NCBI GenBank assembly: GCA_022763365.1
Contig: JALEGN010000001.1
Coordinates: 30,514 to 94,513 of the forward strand
Reading direction: 5' to 3'
Source: Minisyncoccota bacterium
Lineage (GTDB): Bacteria; Patescibacteriota; Minisyncoccia; Phycocordibacterales; UBA1006
Length of the DNA: 64,000 bases
Position 1 is the first letter of the stretch. The number at the start of each line of letters is the position of its first letter. Below are positions 1 through 57,228 of the stretch, in pieces. The position numbers and the translations under genes are program-made. The notes under the pieces were generated by a model. It did not search any database and had not been told where the DNA came from. It saw nothing but the letters and a program-made list of their open reading frames with translations.

Positions 1-6
1 AATCGA

Positions 7-432
7 TTGGGAGATTTTGGTGAAACATTAGATGTGGAATTAACACATATTCATCCAAAATTAATCAAGCGTATTGACCTTGGTCCTATTTTTGGACATT
101 ACTCAAAAGACGAGCATAGTATTTCGCAATTCTTTCATCGACATAATTTCAAACCAACTGATAGTATTATTTGGTTTGAAATACAGAAACTTGTTTCTGT
201 TGGTGAAAAGAAAACGCGTAGCAAATTTTTCAATGCTAAAACAATTTTGCAAGAATTTGAATTCTCTCAGGATATTGAATCTATGCGAAATAAAGTTTCA
301 GATATTGAATATCATCTTGTGGCACCGCATCATGTGATGCAGTATCTCTATGATGATGAAGAAGAAATGAAAACAATAATCAGAAAGGTAGGTGATAATA
401 TCACTACCTTTCATAAAAACGAACATGCATGA
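7..432 (+). CDS. hypothetical protein; the frame is open to the window edge, so it may be 5'-partial. First gene of a coupled five-gene operon.
   Basis: The ORF starts at TTG and the frame continues to position 1. Its stop overlaps the next gene's start (ATGA at 429-432). No recognisable motifs. Confidence 0.4.
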   Translation: MGDFGETLDVELTHIHPKLIKRIDLGPIFGHYSKDEHSISQFFHRHNFKPTDSIIWFEIQKLVSVGEKKTRSKFFNAKTILQEFEFSQDIESMRNKVSDIEYHLVAPHHVMQYLYDDEEEMKTIIRKVGDNITTFHKNEHA

Positions 433-2420
433 CAACACAGTCATATATACCAATAACGAAAGGTGATTTGGAAAAAGGTGCTCAGGTTGTGACATCAGCT
501 CTTGAAAAAGTTGGATGGAATGATTCTGATAGAACCACAAATCAACCAAAGAAAGAAAGTATTGAAGCTTATGCAGGAAACTTTGCACACCGACATGCAG
601 GAGCATTAGGTAGAGGAGTTTCATCAAATGTTAATACACTTTCATTAACCGGTATTGCTCAGAAATTGAGTAAAAATACGAGCATTCTCAACGAGGATTG
701 TTCGGTTGTACTAAATGCAATCTTAACGGGTATGTCTGTTGGTGTATATATTGCTGAGCAATACTATACTTCATCTGGACTTATTAAGTTACGAGTAACT
801 AAGGATTCAAGTGAGAAAGATAAGGAAGAGTATGAAGAAAAACGAGCAGCTCAAGCACGCATATTTTTGCATGTGGCTGCTAACTTTATTACTTGGACTT
901 TGGAACAGTACAAAAGCGACGAAGCTGGCGTACTAGCAATGACCTTGGATAAAAATCCAGAACTCAGCTTGAGTGGTTCAACAAATAGCATGAAATCATC
1001 TTTATATTTTTATGCCAAGTTTGTTGAGCAATCAGGTAAAGTAAATACATCGCTTGCTTTTGTAAAAGCAACCTTGGTGTATTTTGAACGAGTTTTAGAT
1101 ATTGTAGAAGCAGAAGTTAGTACGACTAATTATACTGATTTCTTTACCAGTAGACGATACAAATTATCTGATACTGATTTTGTTATCGAAGGATTTGAAC
1201 GATCTTCAGTTGGTACTCACAGCAAAGTTGAAGTACGTGACATCACCATGGACGATATTATCGCTAATGGTGAATTCCGTAAAACAAATATGCGTCAAAT
1301 TGAACGCATGTTGTGTTATGACCCAACCGAACAGAGAAATCCGTGGCAAGAGTTAGGTGGATTATCTACCTTTGCTATGAGCTATGGGCCTCCTGGAACA
1401 GGAAAATCGATGGGAATTGCTGCAACGTATAATTATGGATTTGATCTCGCTGAGAATATCGGCGTTCCATTCAAAATGTTACCTCTTCCAAAGACGTTAA
1501 TTTCTGGCATTCAGGGAGAAACGGCTGGAAAAGTTCAGCAATACTTTAGATTGTTGCGTAATCCAAGTGTGATTACCTATGCTCCATGGGATGATATTGA
1601 AAATCTCTTGAAAGATCGCTCTCGTCAGGGAGCTTCAGAAGGAGAAGGTCATATTATCAGTGGTGTATTAACTGAAACTGAAGGGGCTACGGCTGTTAAT
1701 CATGGAAACTATTTTATCCAGATTTTCAGTAATTACCCTGGAGGTATTGATGCGGCTATTTTATCACGAGTTCAAAGCCGAACGCTCTTAGGTGGTCCAA
1801 CTACCTATGAAGATTTTATGGCTTTAGACTACCTGTGGTATAAGCTGCACGAAGAACAGATTAATGGACTTGTCGGTAGTAAAAAACCTCCTAAAACAGA
1901 ATTTGAAAAATCAATGGAAATACCAGAATTTCTGGCTAACATTGAATTTGATGAATCTGTTCTTAGGCCAGAGGTTCTTGAAATCGCTAAAAAAGTTGAC
2001 AATCAGTTTGATAGTTCAGACGACCCACGTTGGGCAGCAACCTTTCAAGATTTAATGAGTAACCAGTATGATTTCTGGACGGCTCGTGAATCACGAAATG
2101 TACAGTCAGGTATTGATTTAATTCTTATGGATTTTGATATGGAAAAAGAGATGTTTGAAAACAGATCTGTATTCTTTGATAAGTCTTACAAGGAAAGAGT
2201 TGGTATCTTAAAAGAGCTGAAACGAGCTCGTGCCAAAGAGGTTGATTTTTACAAAATATGGCGTCAAGAAATGCTAAAACATGCATCATCATTGATTACC
2301 ATAAAAAGTGAGAAAATTGATCAAAAGATTGGTGAACGAACAGAAGACATGATTGTGCAGCGAGCTGCTATTAATGCAGCTGCCAAACAGCGTCCTGATT
2401 TGTTTCAAGAACAACAATAA
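429..2420 (+). CDS. AAA+ ATPase of the classical AAA clade, with a large N-terminal domain (~330 aa) and a C-terminal extension
   Basis: Walker A GPPGTGKS. An AAA-type box ISGIQGETAGKVQQYF resembles the GESEKxVRxLF box. Walker B-like ITYAPWDDIE is atypical (DD). The SRH-like stretch GGIDAAILSRVQSR is comparable to the Fts[17 protein letters not shown] seen in this same window. Confidence 0.7.
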   Translation: MTTQSYIPITKGDLEKGAQVVTSALEKVGWNDSDRTTNQPKKESIEAYAGNFAHRHAGALGRGVSSNVNTLSLTGIAQKLSKNTSILNEDCSVVLNAILTGMSVGVYIAEQYYTSSGLIKLRVTKDSSEKDKEEYEEKRAAQARIFLHVAANFITWTLEQYKSDEAGVLAMTLDKNPELSLSGSTNSMKSSLYFYAKFVEQSGKVNTSLAFVKATLVYFERVLDIVEAEVSTTNYTDFFTSRRYKLSDTDFVIEGFERSSVGTHSKVEVRDITMDDIIANGEFRKTNMRQIERMLCYDPTEQRNPWQELGGLSTFAMSYGPPGTGKSMGIAATYNYGFDLAENIGVPFKMLPLPKTLISGIQGETAGKVQQYFRLLRNPSVITYAPWDDIENLLKDRSRQGASEGEGHIISGVLTETEGATAVNHGNYFIQIFSNYPGGIDAAILSRVQSRTLLGGPTTYEDFMALDYLWYKLHEEQINGLVGSKKPPKTEFEKSMEIPEFLANIEFDESVLRPEVLEIAKKVDNQFDSSDDPRWAATFQDLMSNQYDFWTARESRNVQSGIDLILMDFDMEKEMFENRSVFFDKSYKERVGILKELKRARAKEVDFYKIWRQEMLKHASSLITIKSEKIDQKIGERTEDMIVQRAAINAAAKQRPDLFQEQQ

Positions 2421-2478
2421 ATGTATAACCATGGCTAGGTGACATGTGTGTTACCTAGCCATTTTAAAAACCTAGTTA

Positions 2479-3783
2479 ATGGAATTACTCAAAGAGCTTA
2501 AGCTCATAAACCATGGATTAATCGAAATTAATAGTTCACTATTGATTAAACGATATAACGATGCGTTGAGCTTGATTGGACTTGCGCCAACTCAGCTCAA
2601 AACATTTTTCATTGATGGTTGGGGTTGGTCACCGGAAATTGCAAAAGAAAAAGATGATAAATTTTATCTTTCTCATGGACTTGAAAATCCTTATGCAATA
2701 ATCCTTACACCTGAGCAAAAAAATGTTTCGGTATATATGCCAACTCATTCTTTTGATAAACAAATTCTTAAGAAAATTTTTCTAGAATTTGAACCTCAAA
2801 TACATGACTTGACCATGAAAACAGCAATTGTTGTTGAGTGTGATCAAGAGATATCACGGTATGTAAATGCAGAAGACTTACTTGGGATTGAATATTTTAT
2901 GCTTAATTTTAAAACTGTCGGAGATCTTTCTTCTAAAAAGAAAGAACAACAGCAACTTGAAAGTGAGTTTTATAAAAATCCTATGGCTTGGTCAAATCAT
3001 GATCTTCGAGAACAACTCGTAGAAAGCTATGCAATCTATGGTGTACTTGCAAAGAAAAAGTATTATTTGCCAAGCCTACCATTTTCAAATGTGCAGTGTT
3101 TTTACACAAAGGCATTTGGCGGTACTTTTGTCATAAATAGCATTTCTAAATATCTTCCTCAGCCCTTGTTGATTCATGAGAAGAAAACAAAGAAAGCTGA
3201 GAAGATTAGAGGTCAAGCTGCAGGGCATATGGAGTTTAATCTCCAAGACCCGAAGCTTATTACGTATCTTAAAAAACGTAATGTTATTGGGGTATACGAA
3301 GAAAAACTGAGGGAAGAAATTGATGATATTAACAGGCTCCTTCACTGCGAAGTAGTAAACGCTATTTCAGATAAGGAACCCGAACTTCTTATTCGGGAAC
3401 TCAGTACTCCTCAACTTGATGGTTATATCCATAATTATTTAGAGAAAAAACGGCTTGGTAAGGTTTTTAGTAATTTAGAATGTCTCTGCTCTGATTTGAA
3501 AAAGAATCGAAGTATTGATATTACTGAATTATTACCAGAAACAAGAAACCATCTCTTGCGCCCTAATCCGATGCTTGATGATGAAACAAGACGTGTCATC
3601 TGGAGAATCTTACTCAAGGTTAATTCTTTTGATGTTTTTAGACTCTATGTCTATGACAAAGAAGAGTTCTTTAAAGAATATCTTTCTTGGCCCTTAGGAA
3701 AACGTCATTGGGTCGCTCACTATATTGCCGAGCGATACCAAGACAACGATGAATTTGAAATTAACACTAAAAACGATACATAA
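2479..3783 (+). CDS. hypothetical protein (434 aa), operon member
   Basis: Long ORF with no recognisable motif. The stop overlaps the next start by 1 nt (taATGa at 3781-3786). Confidence 0.5.
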   Translation: MELLKELKLINHGLIEINSSLLIKRYNDALSLIGLAPTQLKTFFIDGWGWSPEIAKEKDDKFYLSHGLENPYAIILTPEQKNVSVYMPTHSFDKQILKKIFLEFEPQIHDLTMKTAIVVECDQEISRYVNAEDLLGIEYFMLNFKTVGDLSSKKKEQQQLESEFYKNPMAWSNHDLREQLVESYAIYGVLAKKKYYLPSLPFSNVQCFYTKAFGGTFVINSISKYLPQPLLIHEKKTKKAEKIRGQAAGHMEFNLQDPKLITYLKKRNVIGVYEEKLREEIDDINRLLHCEVVNAISDKEPELLIRELSTPQLDGYIHNYLEKKRLGKVFSNLECLCSDLKKNRSIDITELLPETRNHLLRPNPMLDDETRRVIWRILLKVNSFDVFRLYVYDKEEFFKEYLSWPLGKRHWVAHYIAERYQDNDEFEINTKNDT

Positions 3784-4385
3784 TGAAAGTAACTATTTCA
3801 GCACTATTGGTAACAGGAATAATTTTTATTCTTGGTATGTTTCTTTCTTATCGCGATGCACTGCGAAAGAAGAAACCAGAGGGATTATTATCAGCCTTTT
3901 ATGGTTTGATATTAAAACCTCTTGGATGGAATCCAGAACCAAAAACTAAAGCAATGAGAGGATATGTCTTTGGGCAAAATTTTCTTATTCGCCTTATTTC
4001 CGCATTCATATTTGTGATATGTGTGAAGTTATGTTGGTGGTTAGGGACGGGAGCTCTTGGATTAGAGTCGTATAGTACATCAGGCGGCGTATCTACAAGA
4101 TGGATGATTATTCATTTGGTGGCAGCCTTAGCAAGTATGTATCTCTTTGACCTTTGGCCATCAGTCAGAAAAAAAACTTTTGAACGTGCTGAGAATTTTG
4201 CCAATTCAGGCAAAGAGCATTTTCAAGAGAATATGGCTGGTATTAAAGCAAAAACAGAGTCTTTTCGAAAAAGGTTTCAAAAAGAGAAACCTCAAGAAGA
4301 GACAAAAACAAATGTTCAACCACAAGAAACGAAGAAGAAATCTTTAGAAGATATCGATACTTCAAATCTTGATAAATATCAATAA
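3783..4385 (+). CDS. membrane protein (~3 TM helices) with a charged C-terminal tail
   Basis: Hydrophobic segments LLVTGIIFILGMFL, LIRLISAFIFVICV and MIIHLVAALASMYLF. The tail is K/E-rich. The stop abuts the next start. Confidence 0.5.
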   Translation: MKVTISALLVTGIIFILGMFLSYRDALRKKKPEGLLSAFYGLILKPLGWNPEPKTKAMRGYVFGQNFLIRLISAFIFVICVKLCWWLGTGALGLESYSTSGGVSTRWMIIHLVAALASMYLFDLWPSVRKKTFERAENFANSGKEHFQENMAGIKAKTESFRKRFQKEKPQEETKTNVQPQETKKKSLEDIDTSNLDKYQ

Positions 4386-6341
4386 ATGGAAACAGATATT
4401 AAACCCAAAAAACTAAGTGGTAATCGCTTTGTACGTTTTGGTCACAGTCTATGGAAATTTTTCGTTTTTATAGCTAAAACATTCTTATGGATTGTGGCTT
4501 GGCCTTACATGTTCGCTGGTAAACATCGAACACGATTAGACCAAAGTATTGAACGATTGAAGACAGAGCGATACTCTGAAGAACATATTCGTGTTCATCG
4601 TTTTTGGATGAATATTAAATATCGTTTCTTAAAAATCTTCAGATGGTTAGCTGTTTGGGCTGTTATTTGGTGGCCAATTCTATTATTTTTTGAACGAGCC
4701 TATTTGCATCCAATAGTATTATTTGTGAGTATTAAAACTCCCGTAATATTATTATTGGCATTGGTTGGTTTTCTCTTTGTTCGTAAATTTAATCGAGTGA
4801 AGAAAACAAGTAATAAAATTATTACAGCGGCTGTTGCAATCACAATTGGTGTTGGAACCTTTTATCTTGGTGAATGGACCTATGATTATTGTGCCTATGC
4901 GTATAATTTTCATACGCGAATAAAAGCACAAGAAATTAGTGTTTTACCAGAAACCGATTATGAAAAAGTTCATGCACGTGTCACCGTTCATGGTGTCGCC
5001 GAGCGTGATCGAACTGAAGATACACAAGATGTAACTTTGGCTCATTACGTTCGTGACATTGATGATGGTGAACATTATTGGACAATGGGTGTTGAACCAT
5101 CTAAGACTAAATGGGTACAGTATCTTTTCGGTAATGTATCACAAGTATTCTTTACTAAAGGTAACTCATTGAGTTTACGTTTTGATAAAGAATCCAAGGA
5201 GGTTACTGATGTTGATTTTCAATTTGGAGAATATTTACTATTCTCAAATAACATAGAACAAGCAGCAATTAAAAAACTCAATGCTCTCCAGTATTGGAGA
5301 TACGAGCCAGCTGATTACGCTATTTATATTAATCGAGGATCAAAACCAGATGAAAATGGAGAAATGAAGAAAGATTGGGTACAGGTCATTCCCGTGACAA
5401 AATGGGTTGGGGTTTTATTCCCAATGCCAGAACCAGCTGGAGTGATTGTTATTGACCAAAACCATGTAAGTTATGTTGAAAAAATATTTCTTGGCGCCGG
5501 AGACTTTGTTTCTCGCGCTGAAGTACGTGATACTGACTACTTACAAGGTCAACTATTAATACCCGAGAGTTATTCGGTATACATGGCAAATTGCTTTAGG
5601 TTTTACCACAGTTTGTTTGCTCCTATGCCAGGAAATCATGAGGGAGATATTCGGATTCCGAATATTCCAAATAATTTCACAAGCTTTCCATTTAAAGAGT
5701 ATTTCCGTATGAGTAAGGTTGATTCAACAGGGAATGCTTATGATGGTTTTTATCATTATATTCCATTGTCACCCTTTGGTGATAAGAATCTCTTAAGTCT
5801 GAGTTTATTTGTGGCAGGTGATGATGGACGTGATGTCTATTACATTGATCACAAAAAGACTGGTACAAAAATGGATGGACCATCAAGTATCCCTTCGAGG
5901 GTTGTTGATGGTAATAGTAACTATGATTGGAGTAAAGCTGTTCCAACTGAAGTAAGTCCTGTTGTTAAAACAGTCCACGGAGAACGGCATCTTATTTGGA
6001 AGTCTGCAATACAGACCTATGGAGACGATGAACGTACTCAAATTACCTTCGGTAAAACAGAATTATTTTTTCTTGTTGCAAAAGACCTTTCTGCTTCTAT
6101 CCGTTTAGAGGGGAGAGATGCATCTACAGCTAACTGGCAATCAGGGTTTGAATCAATTATTGATCCTCCTGATGGCTGGAAGCCGCCTGTTGAATTAATT
6201 GACTCTGAAATCGAGATACCAGAACAAGAAATAATTGTTAAACCAACAATTTCCCAAGATTCAACTTCTCAGGTAAATACGGTTAAGATAGATAGTGTTC
6301 TTTATGAAAAAGAGAAAGATACTTTAAGTATCAACCAATAA
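4386..6341 (+). CDS. polytopic membrane protein (4 N-terminal TM helices) with a large C-terminal soluble domain (~450 aa) of unknown function
   Basis: TM segments FFVFIAKTFLWIVAWPYMF, LAVWAVIWWPILLFF, VILLLALVGFLFV and IITAAVAITIGVGTFYLG, followed by a long hydrophilic domain. Followed directly by a rho-independent terminator. Confidence 0.55.
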   Translation: METDIKPKKLSGNRFVRFGHSLWKFFVFIAKTFLWIVAWPYMFAGKHRTRLDQSIERLKTERYSEEHIRVHRFWMNIKYRFLKIFRWLAVWAVIWWPILLFFERAYLHPIVLFVSIKTPVILLLALVGFLFVRKFNRVKKTSNKIITAAVAITIGVGTFYLGEWTYDYCAYAYNFHTRIKAQEISVLPETDYEKVHARVTVHGVAERDRTEDTQDVTLAHYVRDIDDGEHYWTMGVEPSKTKWVQYLFGNVSQVFFTKGNSLSLRFDKESKEVTDVDFQFGEYLLFSNNIEQAAIKKLNALQYWRYEPADYAIYINRGSKPDENGEMKKDWVQVIPVTKWVGVLFPMPEPAGVIVIDQNHVSYVEKIFLGAGDFVSRAEVRDTDYLQGQLLIPESYSVYMANCFRFYHSLFAPMPGNHEGDIRIPNIPNNFTSFPFKEYFRMSKVDSTGNAYDGFYHYIPLSPFGDKNLLSLSLFVAGDDGRDVYYIDHKKTGTKMDGPSSIPSRVVDGNSNYDWSKAVPTEVSPVVKTVHGERHLIWKSAIQTYGDDERTQITFGKTELFFLVAKDLSASIRLEGRDASTANWQSGFESIIDPPDGWKPPVELIDSEIEIPEQEIIVKPTISQDSTSQVNTVKIDSVLYEKEKDTLSINQ

Positions 6342-6349
6342 TTTAATAA

Positions 6350-6377
6350 ACCCGACACTTTGTGTCGGGTTTTTTCT
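6350..6377 (+). terminator. rho-independent terminator closing the 5-gene operon
   Basis: Hairpin cccgacac-tttg-tgtcggg followed by a tttttt run. Confidence 0.8.
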
Positions 6378-6438: not shown

Positions 6439-6960
6439 ATGAAATTAAAATTTAAAGACGTAACAAAGTTTCTCAAGGGAAAGTATCAAGAAGTTGCCGA
6501 ACTCATTCCTTCTACAGAGGAAATCGAGAAGGCATTAAAATCTATTCCCGATTTTCTGGAAGATAGGGGAGTCTTAAGGTGGTTTCGAAGACTTGATAAG
6601 GAAGCCAGAGCCAAAGTCAAATCAGCCTTTTCAGACCGATCAGCTCGTAGAATTTTATTAATTCTTCTGAGTCTCGCAATCCCAACAAAATTATTTTATC
6701 GTATCTTGTTGGGTATTGTTGATATTGAAGATGTAAAGTTGGTTAATACTAACGAAAAATCAATTTCAATTACCTTGCTCGATCAACGAGCCGTGAGCTT
6801 TAATAGAAGTGAAGAAGGGGTATGGACCTGCGCTTTTGGTCCTAATGGAAGACAGCGAACCATTCCTCTACCAGAAGGTATAGATAAAATCCTTGCTAAT
6901 TTTAAAGTCAAAGCTCCTTGGAAATCAAGCAATGAAACTGATTCGACCGAAGAAGGGTAA
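6439..6960 (+). CDS. hypothetical protein
   Basis: 173-aa ORF with an AT-rich promoter-like upstream region. The overlapping minus ORF 6783..7022 is treated as a shadow ORF. Confidence 0.4.
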   Translation: MKLKFKDVTKFLKGKYQEVAELIPSTEEIEKALKSIPDFLEDRGVLRWFRRLDKEARAKVKSAFSDRSARRILLILLSLAIPTKLFYRILLGIVDIEDVKLVNTNEKSISITLLDQRAVSFNRSEEGVWTCAFGPNGRQRTIPLPEGIDKILANFKVKAPWKSSNETDSTEEG

Positions 6961-7056
6961 AAACCTCTCATAACTAAATAAAACCTACAGAGAAATCTGT
7001 GGGTTTTAAATTTGATTTTCAATTTTTAATCATTATAATTAAACAAAAAATACAAT

Positions 7057-7656
7057 ATGGTAGAAACAATTATTGATTCGTATGTGTTAAATAAATTTCA
7101 GAAAATTAGTGATTTTGTTCAAGATTGGTTTGGAGTAGATAATTTTAAAATAGCCCAAATAGCTTTTCATTTATATGTTATTACAAATTTATTAAATGAA
7201 TTGTTTGAATTTAAAGAACTCGGGTCTATTTTTTGGCTTTGTATTGGTATAATATTTTTCTTTATATTTTTTATTGTTTATAGATTTCTTTTAAGAATAA
7301 CTCAGTCTGCTTACTCAAGTAACCCACAATTCCAAAATAGATTAGGTACTACGGGTACCATCATTGGTATGTTTAGATGTTACTTTTTTGTCTTCTTAGT
7401 ATTGAGTTTATTTTTTCTATTTTTTCATCTTGGTCATGAGCATGTTCCAAAAAATGCAGGAGATATAGTCTATCCAAATTACTTAAGGTTTATAAGTTTT
7501 CTAGAGCAGTTATTTGAAGTTTGTTTCGTTTATTTTATTTCTTGTACACCTAAGCCTAAAAAACCAAGTAAATTTAAAAAATTCATAGAAAAAATGAAAA
7601 CGAGCTTTTCATCGCAAGGTCAAGGAACATTAGTCCCTAATTTTGTGAAAATATAA
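7057..7656 (+). CDS. hypothetical polytopic membrane protein (very AT-rich gene)
   Basis: Multiple hydrophobic stretches such as IFWLCIGIIFFFIFFIVY and YFFVFLVLSLFFLFF. A bidirectional terminator (aatccca/tgggatt) follows at 7658-7681. Confidence 0.4.
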   Translation: MVETIIDSYVLNKFQKISDFVQDWFGVDNFKIAQIAFHLYVITNLLNELFEFKELGSIFWLCIGIIFFFIFFIVYRFLLRITQSAYSSNPQFQNRLGTTGTIIGMFRCYFFVFLVLSLFFLFFHLGHEHVPKNAGDIVYPNYLRFISFLEQLFEVCFVYFISCTPKPKKPSKFKKFIEKMKTSFSSQGQGTLVPNFVKI

Positions 7657-38916: not shown

Positions 38917-41217
38917 TTGAATATGATATACTATTGCTATACTTTTTCCTTATTACCTATGCATTTGAAACGACTTGAATTGAATGGATTTAAATCATTC
39001 GCTAAGAAGAGCGAATTTATTTTTGATGTTCCTATTATTGCTATTGTAGGACCTAATGGTTCTGGAAAATCTAATGTTGTTGAATCCATTCGTTTCGTAT
39101 TAGGTGAACAATCAGTAAAATCAATGCGAGGGAAAACTGGTTCAGATCTTATCTTCAAAGGTTCACGTGAGATTTCAAAAATGTCACGTGCTGCGGTATC
39201 AATTGTGTTTGATAATACTGATAGAGTATTTCACCTTGAGCAAGCGAATAACACCAAACTGAGTGTTGATTTTGATGAAGTAGTTATTACACGTGAGGTC
39301 TACGCTGATGGTGCTAATAAATATTTGATAAATGGACATGAGGTGCGCATGAAAGATGTTCATGAATTGATTGCGTCAGTGAATATTGGTGCATCGGGCC
39401 ACCATATTATTTCTCAAGGTGAAGCTGATCGATATCTCAACGCTAATATTAAAGATAGACGCGAGCTTATTGAAGAGGCTTTAGGATTAAAATTGTATCA
39501 ATACCGCATTAAAGAATCTCAGCGAAAACTCAAAAAAGCTGAAGAGAATATGCGTGAGTCTGAGCTTCTCAGGCGGGAGATTGCTCCGCATCTGCGTTTC
39601 CTAAAACGTCAGGTTGATAAAATTGAAAAAGCGAAACATCTTCGAGAAGAACTTGCAGGTGAGTATCGTAAATACTTTGCTCAAGAAGATTATCTAAGAC
39701 AGGTTCTGACCAAAAAACTTGATCAAGATAGGGATGAGGTACAGTCTGAATATTCGCGTGTCCGATCGTTTCTTGATGAATATGGTGATGTTGATGAAAC
39801 AGCATCTTTTCAAGAAGAGTTTGATATTAAAGAAGCCCAAGAGCAAATTGAAAATATCAATACCAAAATTACACATAAGCGACAAGAATTAGGTCGCATT
39901 GAGGGGATGATGACGATGCTCCAGAAACAGCAAGATAAGGCTGTAGTAGAACCTGAAAAAAAACAACACCCCGGATTTTCTTACAGTGCTATCTCTGAAT
40001 TTTTGAACAGCATTATTACACAACTAGATTTAATGGGTACGAATGGGCAAGTTAGCCTCGGACAAATTAAACAACGGATTGATGATTTCTTGAAAAAGCC
40101 TGGTGAATCAACATTACAATCAGCGCCAAGTGTTGATAATTCAGTTGAGATTAAGGCTCTTGAAGAGAATAAAGAAACGATTAACCGCCAGGTTGAAGAA
40201 TTACAAGGTATTATAGTGGCAACACAGAATTCTATTGTTGAATTACAAAATACTCTTACTGAAAAACGTAAACAAGAACAAGAATCTCAGCGGCAATATT
40301 ATGAATATCTGGCTAAGAAAAAAGAGCTTGATGGGCGACGTGAAATGATCACTGCTCGAGATGAATCTTTAGGTATGCGCGCTAATGCACGTAACGAAGA
40401 GTATCAAGAAGCCAAAGTTCTTTTAGGAGTAGAGGCGATTGAATATCAATCAATTTTAGGCGGAGATGATGCAGATGTTACAGCCCAGTCCCAAGAACAA
40501 TTTAGACGTCAAATCGAACGTATTAAAATTAGACTTGAAGATATGGGTGGAGGTTCTGGTATTGAAACAATCAACGAATACAACGAAACTCTTGAGCGTG
40601 ATCAATTCCTTGAAGGTGAAATCAAAGATATTGAATCGACCATTGAATCTCTGGAGAATATGATTAGCGACTTGAAAGAGCGTTTGAATACTGAATTTGA
40701 TAAAGGTGTTCAAAAAATTAATACTGAATTTGATCGATTCTTTAAACTGATGTTTGGAGGAGGGCAAGCAAAGCTTGAATCAGCCTTAATCAAGAAACGT
40801 CGGAAAAAATCAACAGAAGAAGGTCAACTTGAACTCTTACCTGAGGAAGAAGAGGTGCAAGAATACGGTATTGATATTAAGGTTCAGTTACCACGTAAAA
40901 AGGTTTCTGATCTTGATATGCTCTCTGGAGGAGAGCGATCACTGACATCAATTGCGCTCCTCTTTGCTTTATCGCAGGTAAATCCGCCACCGTTTTTGGT
41001 GCTTGATGAAACTGATGCGGCTCTTGATGAAGCAAATTCACAGCGTTATGGGGATATGGTAGAACAACTTTCTAAATATTCACAACTCATTGTTGTGACC
41101 CATAACAGGGAAACGATGAGTCGCGCACAGACACTCTTTGGAGTGACTCTTGGACGTGATGATTGTTCAACAACACTCTCACTGCGACTTGAAGATGCAA
41201 CACAATATGCAAAATAA
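38917..41217 (+). CDS. smc: SMC-family chromosome segregation ATPase, compact form (likely start MHLKRLELNGF)
   Basis: N-terminal IVGPNGSGKSNVVESIRFVLGEQS. Coiled coil. C-terminal LSGGERSLTSIALLFAL and Walker B LVLDETDAALD. Confidence 0.8.
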   Translation: MNMIYYCYTFSLLPMHLKRLELNGFKSFAKKSEFIFDVPIIAIVGPNGSGKSNVVESIRFVLGEQSVKSMRGKTGSDLIFKGSREISKMSRAAVSIVFDNTDRVFHLEQANNTKLSVDFDEVVITREVYADGANKYLINGHEVRMKDVHELIASVNIGASGHHIISQGEADRYLNANIKDRRELIEEALGLKLYQYRIKESQRKLKKAEENMRESELLRREIAPHLRFLKRQVDKIEKAKHLREELAGEYRKYFAQEDYLRQVLTKKLDQDRDEVQSEYSRVRSFLDEYGDVDETASFQEEFDIKEAQEQIENINTKITHKRQELGRIEGMMTMLQKQQDKAVVEPEKKQHPGFSYSAISEFLNSIITQLDLMGTNGQVSLGQIKQRIDDFLKKPGESTLQSAPSVDNSVEIKALEENKETINRQVEELQGIIVATQNSIVELQNTLTEKRKQEQESQRQYYEYLAKKKELDGRREMITARDESLGMRANARNEEYQEAKVLLGVEAIEYQSILGGDDADVTAQSQEQFRRQIERIKIRLEDMGGGSGIETINEYNETLERDQFLEGEIKDIESTIESLENMISDLKERLNTEFDKGVQKINTEFDRFFKLMFGGGQAKLESALIKKRRKKSTEEGQLELLPEEEEVQEYGIDIKVQLPRKKVSDLDMLSGGERSLTSIALLFALSQVNPPPFLVLDETDAALDEANSQRYGDMVEQLSKYSQLIVVTHNRETMSRAQTLFGVTLGRDDCSTTLSLRLEDATQYAK

Positions 41218-56891: not shown

Positions 56892-57154
56892 GGCTTTTTT
56901 GTTTATCTAAAAAAACGTATACTTAAAAACATATGGGTGATCTCCTAAAAAAAATAATCAGTTTACTCTTTAAAATCCTTTTGATCGTATTTGGAATTTA
57001 TTTATTAAAATATCTTTTTGAATACTTATCATGGAATTTTACTCTCGATCAACTTTTTTATTATGTCATTGTTGGTTTCGGTCTATGGATCCTAGCTGAG
57101 TGGATGAAGGGATAATTAAAAGCCGATACACATGTACCGGCTTTTAATGTTAAG

Positions 57155-57228
57155 TACGCCCACCAGGACTCGAACCTGGAACCCTCGAGGAATAAGCTCG
57201 ATGCTCTAGCCAATTGAGCTATAGGCGC
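57155..57228 (-). tRNA. tRNA with anticodon UAU (formally Ile, AUA-decoding), with an atypical U37 and two G-U pairs in the acceptor stem
   Basis: Minus strand: GCGCCTA TA GCTC AATTGGCTA GAGC A TCGAG CTTATTC CTCGA GGGTT CCAGG TTCGAGT CCTGG TGGGCGT A. Canonical D/T loops (GG; TTCGAGT). 74 nt. No encoded CCA. Confidence 0.6.

Follow-up and report, generated by a model that had tools for sequence, protein, structure and literature searches.

In eukaryotes and archaea, ATPases of the classical AAA clade drive membrane fission, the recycling of fusion complexes and protein extraction. NSF disassembles membrane-anchored coiled-coil complexes through adaptors, and the segregases Cdc48/p97/VAT and Afg2 depend on adaptors and short linear motifs. 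To our knowledge, FtsH, which acts at the membrane, is the sole broadly conserved classical AAA protein of bacteria, and the other bacterial machines of this clade that we know of are rare and poorly understood. Here we describe a gene cluster built around such an ATPase. It was found at the beginning of a 64,000-nucleotide (nt) stretch of a Minisyncoccota bacterium (assembly GCA_022763365.1, contig JALEGN010000001.1, positions 30,514 to 94,513 of the forward strand), hereafter called the window. An earlier, sequence-only reading had taken the first 6,377 nt for an operon of five genes and had proposed membrane remodelling, secretion, quality control or defence as its function. We found that the operon is a real part of a larger conserved cluster and not a chance grouping of open reading frames (ORFs). 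The conserved unit comprises six genes rather than five, which lie on one strand in the order X (coiled coil), Y, AAA ATPase, DUF6638, g4 and g5. The window holds genes 2 to 6, with Y partial, and lacks X, which lies upstream of it.

We compared the cluster with the closest described systems. Like Vps4 (CdvC)/ESCRT-III and PspA/Vipp1, it combines an AAA protein with a helical, probably membrane-binding partner that carries short terminal peptides (compare the MIM motifs). It differs from Vps4/ESCRT-III in that the ATPase has no MIT domain, X has no Snf7 or PspA_IM30 signature, Y, DUF6638 and the membrane module have no ESCRT counterpart, and the Walker B motif contains DD. The logic of NSF/SNAP/SNARE, with a coiled-coil client, one or more adaptors and an AAA protein, also fits the gene set. 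However, NSF combines two AAA modules with an N-domain of the double-psi-barrel type, whereas the cluster ATPase has one module and an orphan N-domain, and no SNARE or SNAP homology was detectable in the cluster proteins. Cdc48/p97/VAT and Afg2 are the best sequence relatives of the AAA module, and the C-terminus of X (...DDDLLG/S) resembles the p97 tail ...DDDLYG, which docks onto PUB/PUL domains. Unlike Cdc48/p97, the ATPase has neither tandem D1-D2 modules nor the CDC48_N fold, and no ubiquitin-like or proteasome component was found near the cluster. Judged from its sequences, the cluster can be assigned only to the classical AAA proteins, among which its Walker B motif is atypical, and to DUF6638, and not to the Vps4/ESCRT-III, NSF/SNARE or Cdc48 systems. 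DUF6638 (PF20343) and DUF2333 (PF10095), a family that is found in some lineages in the place of g4 and g5, are names only; the third gene in the window is a bona fide DUF6638. What sets the cluster apart is a classical AAA motor locked into a conserved gene set with five partners, none of which belongs to a characterised family. It may be a remodelling machine of the AAA type whose partners are all new, and may represent a new kind of envelope machinery.

Conservation and variation of the cluster

A six-frame ORF list returned the five genes where the sequence-only reading had placed them, followed by the strong terminator that it had noted at the end of the operon:

1..432, + strand: C-terminal 143 amino acids (aa) of protein Y; frame-1 ORF that is open from base 1, at the window edge; gene X and the 5' part of Y are upstream, outside the window
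429..2420, + strand: AAA ATPase, 663 aa (six-frame ORF list and PF00004)
2431..2462, + strand: perfect 14-bp hairpin followed by UUUUAAAAA (UUUU), in the 58-nt spacer between the ATPase and DUF6638 genes
2479..3783, + strand: DUF6638 protein, 434 aa, cytosolic (PF20343)
3783..4385, + strand: g4, small inner-membrane protein, 200 aa (hydropathy and family membership)
4386..6341, + strand: g5, membrane protein, 651 aa (alignment, topology and AlphaFold2 model)
6348..6377, + strand: intrinsic terminator at the operon end (stem and T-run at 6348-6372; 11-bp stem with 6 G-C pairs, 3-nt loop)

The region upstream of the window was read in a relative with 90% identity (L001). Three gene junctions are as tight as had been claimed, with an ATGA overlap at 429-432, a 1-nt overlap at 3783 and genes that abut at 4385/4386, but the claim does not hold at the ATPase/DUF6638 junction, where the 58-nt spacer with its hairpin intervenes.

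A 9-sequence DUF6638 alignment was scanned against 185,579 species genomes. Relatives of DUF6638 were present in 439 of these, and the scan returned 80 loci. Gene neighbourhoods were then compared in 87 loci, in which ORFs were called and iterated hidden Markov model searches were seeded with the cluster neighbours. All six genes were found in the same order and on the same strand in 64 of the 87 independent loci, a degree of clustering that chance would not produce, and most of the others are cut by contig ends. The median gaps are 1 nt between Y and the ATPase gene, 4 nt between the ATPase gene and DUF6638, 3 nt between DUF6638 and g4, and 8 nt between g4 and g5. The genes are strongly co-conserved, so that a lack of co-conservation, which the five-gene proposal had named as grounds for refuting it, was not seen. 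The ATPase/DUF6638 junction is the commonest split point of the cluster (19 of 80 gaps exceed 200 nt, with a maximum of 5.7 kb); unlike the window, many other genomes have no spacer here, and the two genes share 7-8 nt.

The cluster is spread over Bacteroidota, Patescibacteria, Desulfobacterota, and Alpha- and Gammaproteobacteria. According to the record titles, the Bacteroidota loci come from Flavobacteriales and Chitinophagales and include cultured Kordia, Winogradskyella, Aquimarina, Seonamhaeicola and Patiriisocius; other loci come from Patescibacteria (Buchananbacteria, Sungiibacteriota), Desulfobacterota (Desulfonema magnum and others) and one gammaproteobacterial metagenome-assembled genome (MAG). 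Furthermore, the cluster was found in Rhizobiaceae and on Vibrio megaplasmids, and it is retained in very small genomes of the candidate phyla radiation (CPR).

Not all parts of the cluster are equally constant. In Rhizobium and Sinorhizobium, a single DUF2333 (PF10095) membrane protein stands in place of g4 and g5, and it is unrelated to g5 by hhalign (probability <1%). In a Vibrio parahaemolyticus megaplasmid, in Desulfonema magnum and in one Flavobacteriaceae locus, X-Y-AAA-DUF6638 has no adjacent membrane gene. Since the membrane module is swapped or absent in some lineages, we regard the cytosolic X-Y-AAA-DUF6638 as the constant core. In several Flavobacteriaceae, genes are inserted between the ATPase and DUF6638 genes, or DUF6638-g4-g5 stands alone.

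Individual loci add detail to this picture. On the V. parahaemolyticus megaplasmid NZ_CP062152.1 (L087, 4663-10212), the four-gene core is followed directly by mfd, without a membrane partner; the megaplasmids of V. parahaemolyticus and V. vulnificus that carry this core are 0.9 Mb in size and non-mobilizable. In Sinorhizobium meliloti Ak57 (L088, CP090106.1, 5060-6805), an ISRm16 transposase gene and an endonuclease-domain gene lie between the ATPase and DUF6638 genes. Since this insertion sequence (IS) element interrupts the cluster, Ak57 can do without the intact operon. The 3.7-Mb record CP090106.1 is titled 'pSymB', yet it is chromosome-like and carries trpE, fhs and tdk. In a Flavobacteriales MAG from a long-read assembly (L028:6912-9998), one 1028-aa ORF spans Y and the ATPase; it could be a genuine Y-AAA fusion or the product of an assembly indel.

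When window positions 1-6341 were compared with L002, L007, L008, L010 and with L030, L046, L047, L079, the ATPase and the DUF6638 protein were ~57% and ~50% identical, respectively, to the versions in Flavobacteriales MAGs, and ~30% identical to other Patescibacteria versions. A Flavobacteriales-like cluster in a Patescibacteria-labelled MAG suggests either that the whole cluster was transferred horizontally or that the MAG was mis-binned or mislabelled.

No paper on DUF6638, PF20343 or PF10095 was found in our literature search, and DUF2333 was mentioned once, in passing. The portion of a comparative genomics study of phage shock protein (PSP) and ESCRT systems that we cite here (PMC11237479) describes other operons of AAA with PspA/Snf7 proteins and not X-Y-AAA-DUF6638-g4-g5. 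A search for the S. meliloti tags SMc02730-35 turned up SMc02733 alone: in a DNA-binding screen, a fragment bound by the envelope-stress regulator ChvI was mapped within it (PMC3687685). Gene order beside fhs, shmR and trpE suggests that SMc02733 may lie in the cluster. In S. meliloti 1021, the cluster orthologues are located between tdk and fhs and are probably SMc02729-33.

The ATPase and its partners

The ATPase matched PF00004 (AAA) at residues 319-452 (E 5.6e-11; 43.4 bits against a cut-off of 21.2), in agreement with the classical AAA core that had been read from the sequence. An orphan N-domain (residues 1 to ~255) and a linker precede the single AAA module (~315-460), which is followed by the lid and a C-terminal helical extension (~460-663). 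The following motifs were located in the translation:

1386-1409, + strand: Walker A, GPPGTGKS (residues 320-327)
1503-1520, + strand: pore loop 1
1578-1604, + strand: Walker B (WDDIE, with DD)
1722-1739, + strand: sensor-1
1749-1781, + strand: region like the second region of homology (SRH)

The motifs that had been picked out before are all present: GPPGTGKS, the GETAGK box (within SGIQGETAGK), WDDIE (387-391) and AAILSRVQSR (442-451). In an alignment of 24 diverse homologues, which also served as the profile, the Walker A residues G-x-P-G-T-G-K are invariant and conform to GxxGxGK[ST]. Pore loop 1 reads S-x-[F/Y/I]-Q-G, with S359, Q362 and G363 invariant; the window protein has Ile where most homologues have Phe or Tyr. 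Sensor-1 N435 and the SRH-like residues R447 and R451 are invariant as well, as is an R/N pair in the lid across the family. A PDB profile search returned classical-clade AAA enzymes exclusively: Cdc48, VAT, Afg2, NVL and p97 (E 1e-13 to 5e-9), Vps4 (E 3e-9), NSF (E 2e-8) and Pex6 (E ~2e-7). In addition, residues 200-475 weakly matched the NCBIfam model CdvC (E 1.3e-3). By these sequence features, the protein is a single-module classical-clade AAA ATPase with the residues expected for nucleotide binding, a substrate-contacting pore loop and, probably, inter-subunit sensing.

The N-domain is well conserved within the family and matched no Pfam family and, in a profile search, no PDB entry; a scan of 24 N-domains at E up to 1 gave no MIT match. 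The unique N-terminal domain of the sequence-only reading therefore stands as an orphan domain of ~255 aa plus a linker. Pfam searches detected one AAA module only, with no second module, no CDC48_N-type match and no Peptidase_M41 match. A hydrophobic stretch at residues 91-109 exceeded the hydropathy threshold and was read as a buried helix; no convincing transmembrane helix was found. With one AAA module, no transmembrane anchor and no protease domain, an FtsH paralog and a Cdc48-type tandem enzyme are ruled out, and with the former goes the idea, raised earlier, of FtsH with its regulators. No FtsH-like, secretion-system or ESCRT component was detectable. Other candidates that were tried and rejected are a type VI or type VII secretion system component, a PspA system, phage or plasmid cargo and a chance ORF cluster.

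In searches of Pfam, NCBIfam, PADLOC, PHROGs and PDB, nothing significant was obtained for X, Y, the ATPase N-domain, g4 or g5. The earlier statement that none of the proteins matches a recognised family thus holds for characterised families, with the correction that the third gene in the window is Pfam DUF6638, a family of no known function. Internal paralogy was not detected by hhalign, either between Y and DUF6638 or between the ATPase N-domain and X, Y or DUF6638 (all <1% probability).

X, encoded upstream of Y, is a coiled-coil protein of 360-470 aa. It gave generic coiled-coil matches alone (keratin, IFT20, designed coiled coils, with SipB and JetC below threshold). In Bacteroidota, both ends of X are formed by conserved peptides of acidic and hydrophobic residues: the N-terminus is M[SA]D[DSE]FDLL[ED] (e.g., MSDDFDLLE), and the C-terminus is [DN]DL[LM][GSDE] (e.g., DDDLLG/S) after a low-complexity acidic linker. 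Outside Bacteroidota the proteins terminate in peptides of the ...SSFFxY... type. An aromatic-basic loop between long helices (WNNLWGRK or WNILFGYK) is present in 56 of 66 full-length proteins.

Y is a cytosolic protein of ~370 aa whose family is represented in 78 loci. The part in the window is ~85% identical to the C-terminus of a 373-aa protein of the close relative (L001:993-2114). The family shares the motifs DLTxSGFPN, HPKxLKRIDLGP and PHxVxQ, has invariant Ser, Asp, His and Gln positions, and matched no Pfam or PDB family.

The DUF6638 protein matched PF20343 with E 1e-29 (104.1 bits against a cut-off of 27), its residues 14-423 aligning with positions 5-400 of the 439 in the model. It is 100% identical to NCBI MRY57_00225 from a MAG labelled 'Candidatus Pacebacteria bacterium', and 63 homologues were returned by the search. 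The protein has an N-terminal alpha/beta domain (1 to ~255) with an invariant loop, IDGxGWSPE, and a C-terminal helical domain (~258-432). Its AlphaFold2 model reached a predicted local distance difference test (pLDDT) score of 91.1 and a predicted template-modelling (pTM) score of 0.86. In Foldseek searches, the model had no analogue in PDB (best E 0.5, template-modelling [TM] score ~0.1) or among BFVD viral models.

The family of g4 was found in 79 loci, always directly before g5. Hydropathy indicates 2-3 transmembrane helices followed by a charged cytoplasmic tail of ~80 aa, which is probably disordered and ends in a peptide that is conserved within each lineage (KSARDRLKDKGMIK, DDDWRKGVKDFLDK and DDPDDIINEYLG). 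Natural fusions with g4 at the N-terminus and g5 at the C-terminus (P0150, P0201, P0203 and P0204; 720-835 aa) independently support the sequence-based view that g4 and g5 are one membrane module. They were met among the longer relatives of g5, none of which contained a Pfam domain.

The sequence-only reading had described g5 as a protein with four transmembrane helices. It is a membrane protein indeed, but its core has three such helices, and the additional hydrophobic segment at the N-terminus occurs in the window lineage alone. The N-terminal helical bundle is followed by a beta-rich domain of ~420 aa (~180-595) and a low-confidence tail. Because of the positive-inside pattern of the transmembrane helices, the C-terminal domain is predicted to lie outside the cytoplasm. 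The AlphaFold2 model had a pLDDT of 86.4 and a pTM of 0.83, with residues 100-540 mostly above 90. Foldseek against PDB gave weak matches only (E 2e-4 to 1e-2, TM score 0.15-0.22), all to five- or six-bladed propellers or beta-sandwiches (levansucrase, sialidase, GH43 and copper amine oxidase), and no Pfam or PDB match was obtained by sequence. The model thus depicts a beta-rich, possibly propeller-like outer domain without a real solved analogue. The protein is rare, with 124 cluster representatives among 1.84 billion. DUF6638 and g5 therefore share the combination of a confident predicted structure with no convincing solved analogue.

Proposed mechanism and rival explanations

None of the four functional options proposed from the sequence is proven; membrane-associated remodelling ranks as the most plausible. 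Specifically, we propose an ATP-driven cycle of assembly and disassembly, in which a hexameric AAA protein would remodel or dismantle X assemblies on the inner side of the membrane, and we put the probability of this reading at roughly 0.4. The ATPase would act as a hexameric ring whose pore loops grip and pull a polypeptide and so dismantle a protein assembly, like Cdc48/VAT, Afg2, Vps4 and NSF. Classical AAA enzymes are known to pull in this way, as hexamers, on a polypeptide that an N-domain or an adaptor delivers. The likeliest client would be X, a long coiled coil whose conserved end peptides would be exposed and whose aromatic-basic loop (WNNLWGRK) would be suited to a membrane interface. 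The ATPase N-domain, or Y and DUF6638 as adaptors, or all of these, would recognise the end peptides of X and the C-terminal peptide of g4. The g4 tail peptide would then be a second docking site that brings the motor to the membrane. With g4 and g5 as its anchor, the reaction would take place at the cytoplasmic membrane, on its inner face, and the cycle would be linked to the state of the envelope through the large outer domain of g5. The net result would be the recycling of a membrane-associated coiled-coil scaffold by a functional analogue of Vps4/ESCRT-III or NSF/SNARE that is made of unrelated parts.

A broader claim is that the cluster encodes a bacterial membrane-remodelling or scaffold-recycling machine not described before, in which a Cdc48/Vps4-like AAA ring cycles a coiled-coil protein on and off the membrane, with partners that include at least two folds without a solved counterpart. 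This claim we consider tentative and, taken as a whole, rather doubtful. If it were true, the cluster, which is widespread in at least five phyla and present in minimal-genome Patescibacteria as well as in the model organism S. meliloti, would be a functional analogue of ESCRT-III/Vps4 or SNARE/NSF of independent origin.

Several observations weigh against the disassembly cycle. The Walker B motif, which had been called atypical from the start, reads YAPWDDIEN, with D388-D389 invariant in 24 of 24 homologues and E391 nearly so; the canonical IDEID is replaced by IDDxE, and the catalytic glutamate of the hhhhDE pattern is lacking. Only one of the two canonical arginine fingers was aligned by HMMER, namely R447 with the second, while the nearly invariant S446 was aligned with the first. 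Taken together, these sequence features might point to a slow switch rather than to a processive motor. In X, no Snf7 (PF03357), PspA (PF04012) or TelA signature was detected in 25 members at E up to 1, and there was no detectable relation to SNAREs. Neither the aromatic loop nor the DLL end peptides are present in X of rhizobia. That the ATPase acts on X is what we infer, and another protein could be its client. Moreover, because a membrane partner is dispensable in the Vibrio megaplasmid, in Desulfonema and in one Flavobacteriaceae locus, the core activity is perhaps not membrane-bound. Finally, the invariant polar residues of Y and DUF6638 could equally well belong to enzyme active sites.

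One rival is membrane-protein extraction or quality control, in which an AAA ring on g4-g5 (or DUF2333) would pull out misfolded or mislocalised proteins, like Msp1/ATAD1, Cdc48 in endoplasmic-reticulum-associated degradation or the AAA part of FtsH, and X, Y and DUF6638 would be adaptors or regulators. The nearest solved relatives of the ATPase are indeed segregases and extractases, its pore loop is intact, the membrane partners have cytoplasmic docking tails, and the context is chromosomal and housekeeping. However, neither a protease nor a ubiquitin-like component is encoded in the cluster or close to it, the core is kept without a membrane partner in some genomes, and this scheme has no role for the strictly conserved coiled coil of 360-470 aa. 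We consider extraction unlikely, though it stands first among the alternatives. The atypical Walker B motif would also fit an envelope-sensing switch: the outer domain of g5, large and highly conserved, would sense a cue, and the signal would pass via g4-g5 to the ATPase, which with its slow DD Walker B would be a nucleotide-dependent switch over Y or DUF6638, or both. The invariant Asp, Ser, Glu and His residues of these two proteins would agree with their being enzymes, and the ChvI-bound fragment in SMc02733 would be a possible lead if that gene belongs to the cluster. Against such a switch stand the lack of any known signalling domain, the mechanical remodelling that is usual among classical AAA proteins whose pore loop is intact, and the absence of the membrane sensor in some lineages; we rank it behind extraction as a further unlikely explanation. 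A machine for export, comparable to the transport of helical substrates with the help of chaperones or ATPases in type III and type VII secretion, comes next and is again improbable. Here X, or another client, would be unfolded by the ATPase and threaded through a g4-g5 channel to the cell surface, with the end peptides of X as secretion signals. This would suit a long helical X with conserved N- and C-terminal peptides, and g4 and g5 together have 5-7 transmembrane helices and are sometimes fused. Two X proteins also weakly matched the coiled coil of the type III translocator SipB (E 6e-4, below the Pfam cut-off), but this is a generic coiled-coil similarity, and no protein of the cluster is homologous to a known secretion component. 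Furthermore, several lineages that retain X lack the membrane module or have another in its place, and in the g5 model a single globular outer domain makes up most of the protein and sits on a small bundle of helices, with no obvious channel.

A role in anti-phage defence or inter-microbial conflict is the least probable explanation and in our view very unlikely. On infection, the ATPase would set free X or the membrane proteins, which would then damage the membrane in a form of abortive infection. The distribution is in keeping with this, being patchy (439 of 185,579 species) across distant phyla and including Vibrio megaplasmids. So are the Flavobacteriales-like copy in a Patescibacteria-labelled MAG, which suggests horizontal transfer, and the IS element inside the cluster of S. 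meliloti Ak57, where the operon is thus dispensable. Yet 5,027 PADLOC models (PADLOC-DB v2) gave only noise, in the form of generic AAA (TRIP13, IetA) and coiled-coil (JetC) matches at E 3e-5 or weaker. No PHROG family matched beyond noise, and no phage record contained a DUF6638 relative. The defence-island association that the sequence-only reading had asked about was not borne out, since the flanks consist of housekeeping genes that are syntenic within Flavobacteriaceae and include no recurrent family (maximum, 11 of 87 loci). Matches on plasmids are non-mobilizable megareplicons or mislabelled chromosomes, and the cluster is kept in very small CPR genomes. The G+C content of the operon region (0.35-0.37) equals that of the remaining window and thus of the surrounding chromosome. 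The remaining window codes for GyrB, ThrRS, DnaE, SMC, RNase R, SecA, RecG, pyruvate kinase, a transfer-messenger RNA (tmRNA) and tRNAs. Because of this native G+C content and the housekeeping genes across the window, the context of the operon is an ordinary chromosomal one.

The disassembly cycle and its rivals can be put to direct test, since the cluster is present in tractable Sinorhizobium, Rhizobium, Vibrio and marine flavobacteria. Whatever the outcome, a function for DUF6638 would be found and four new protein families would be defined, and a bacterial process at the cell envelope that is new could come to light.

The intergenic hairpin and other features of the window

The hairpin in the ATPase/DUF6638 spacer (2431-2462) has a predicted dG of -22.5 kcal/mol (z -4.2), and none of 200 shuffled sequences was as stable. 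Its role could be partial termination, attenuation or stabilisation of the mRNA, and the two halves of the operon may be expressed at different levels by means of it.

Just past the operon terminator, a 173-aa protein with a single transmembrane helix is encoded (6439-6960, + strand), followed by a terminator-like site at 6979-7008. This protein is conserved in the 90% relative alone (L001:7977-8492), without a counterpart in the remaining 85 loci, and is probably outside the system. Comparison of L001:8582-13023 with window positions 6960-7057 revealed three additional genes in the relative that are absent from the window. They encode a member of the isocitrate/isopropylmalate dehydrogenase family, an ADP-ribosylglycohydrolase and a 672-aa TPM-domain protein, and they sit between g6 and a gene pair for a 200-aa membrane protein and a TrmB regulator.

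Farther along the window, three features deserve mention:

38917-41217, + strand: SMC-family protein of just 766 aa
52080-52458, - strand: tmRNA gene (Rfam, 110 bits), predicted tag peptide ASPYTVNSFAIA
57154-57228, - strand: tRNA-Ile with anticodon TAT (UAU)

In most bacteria, AUA is read by a lysidine-modified CAU tRNA, and a tRNA-Ile with a UAU anticodon is unusual; its presence here may be related to the lineage or to loss of tilS. A typical bacterial SMC protein has ~1,150-1,200 aa, and the 766-aa protein may be either a form shortened in a reduced genome or a distinct protein that resembles SMC.

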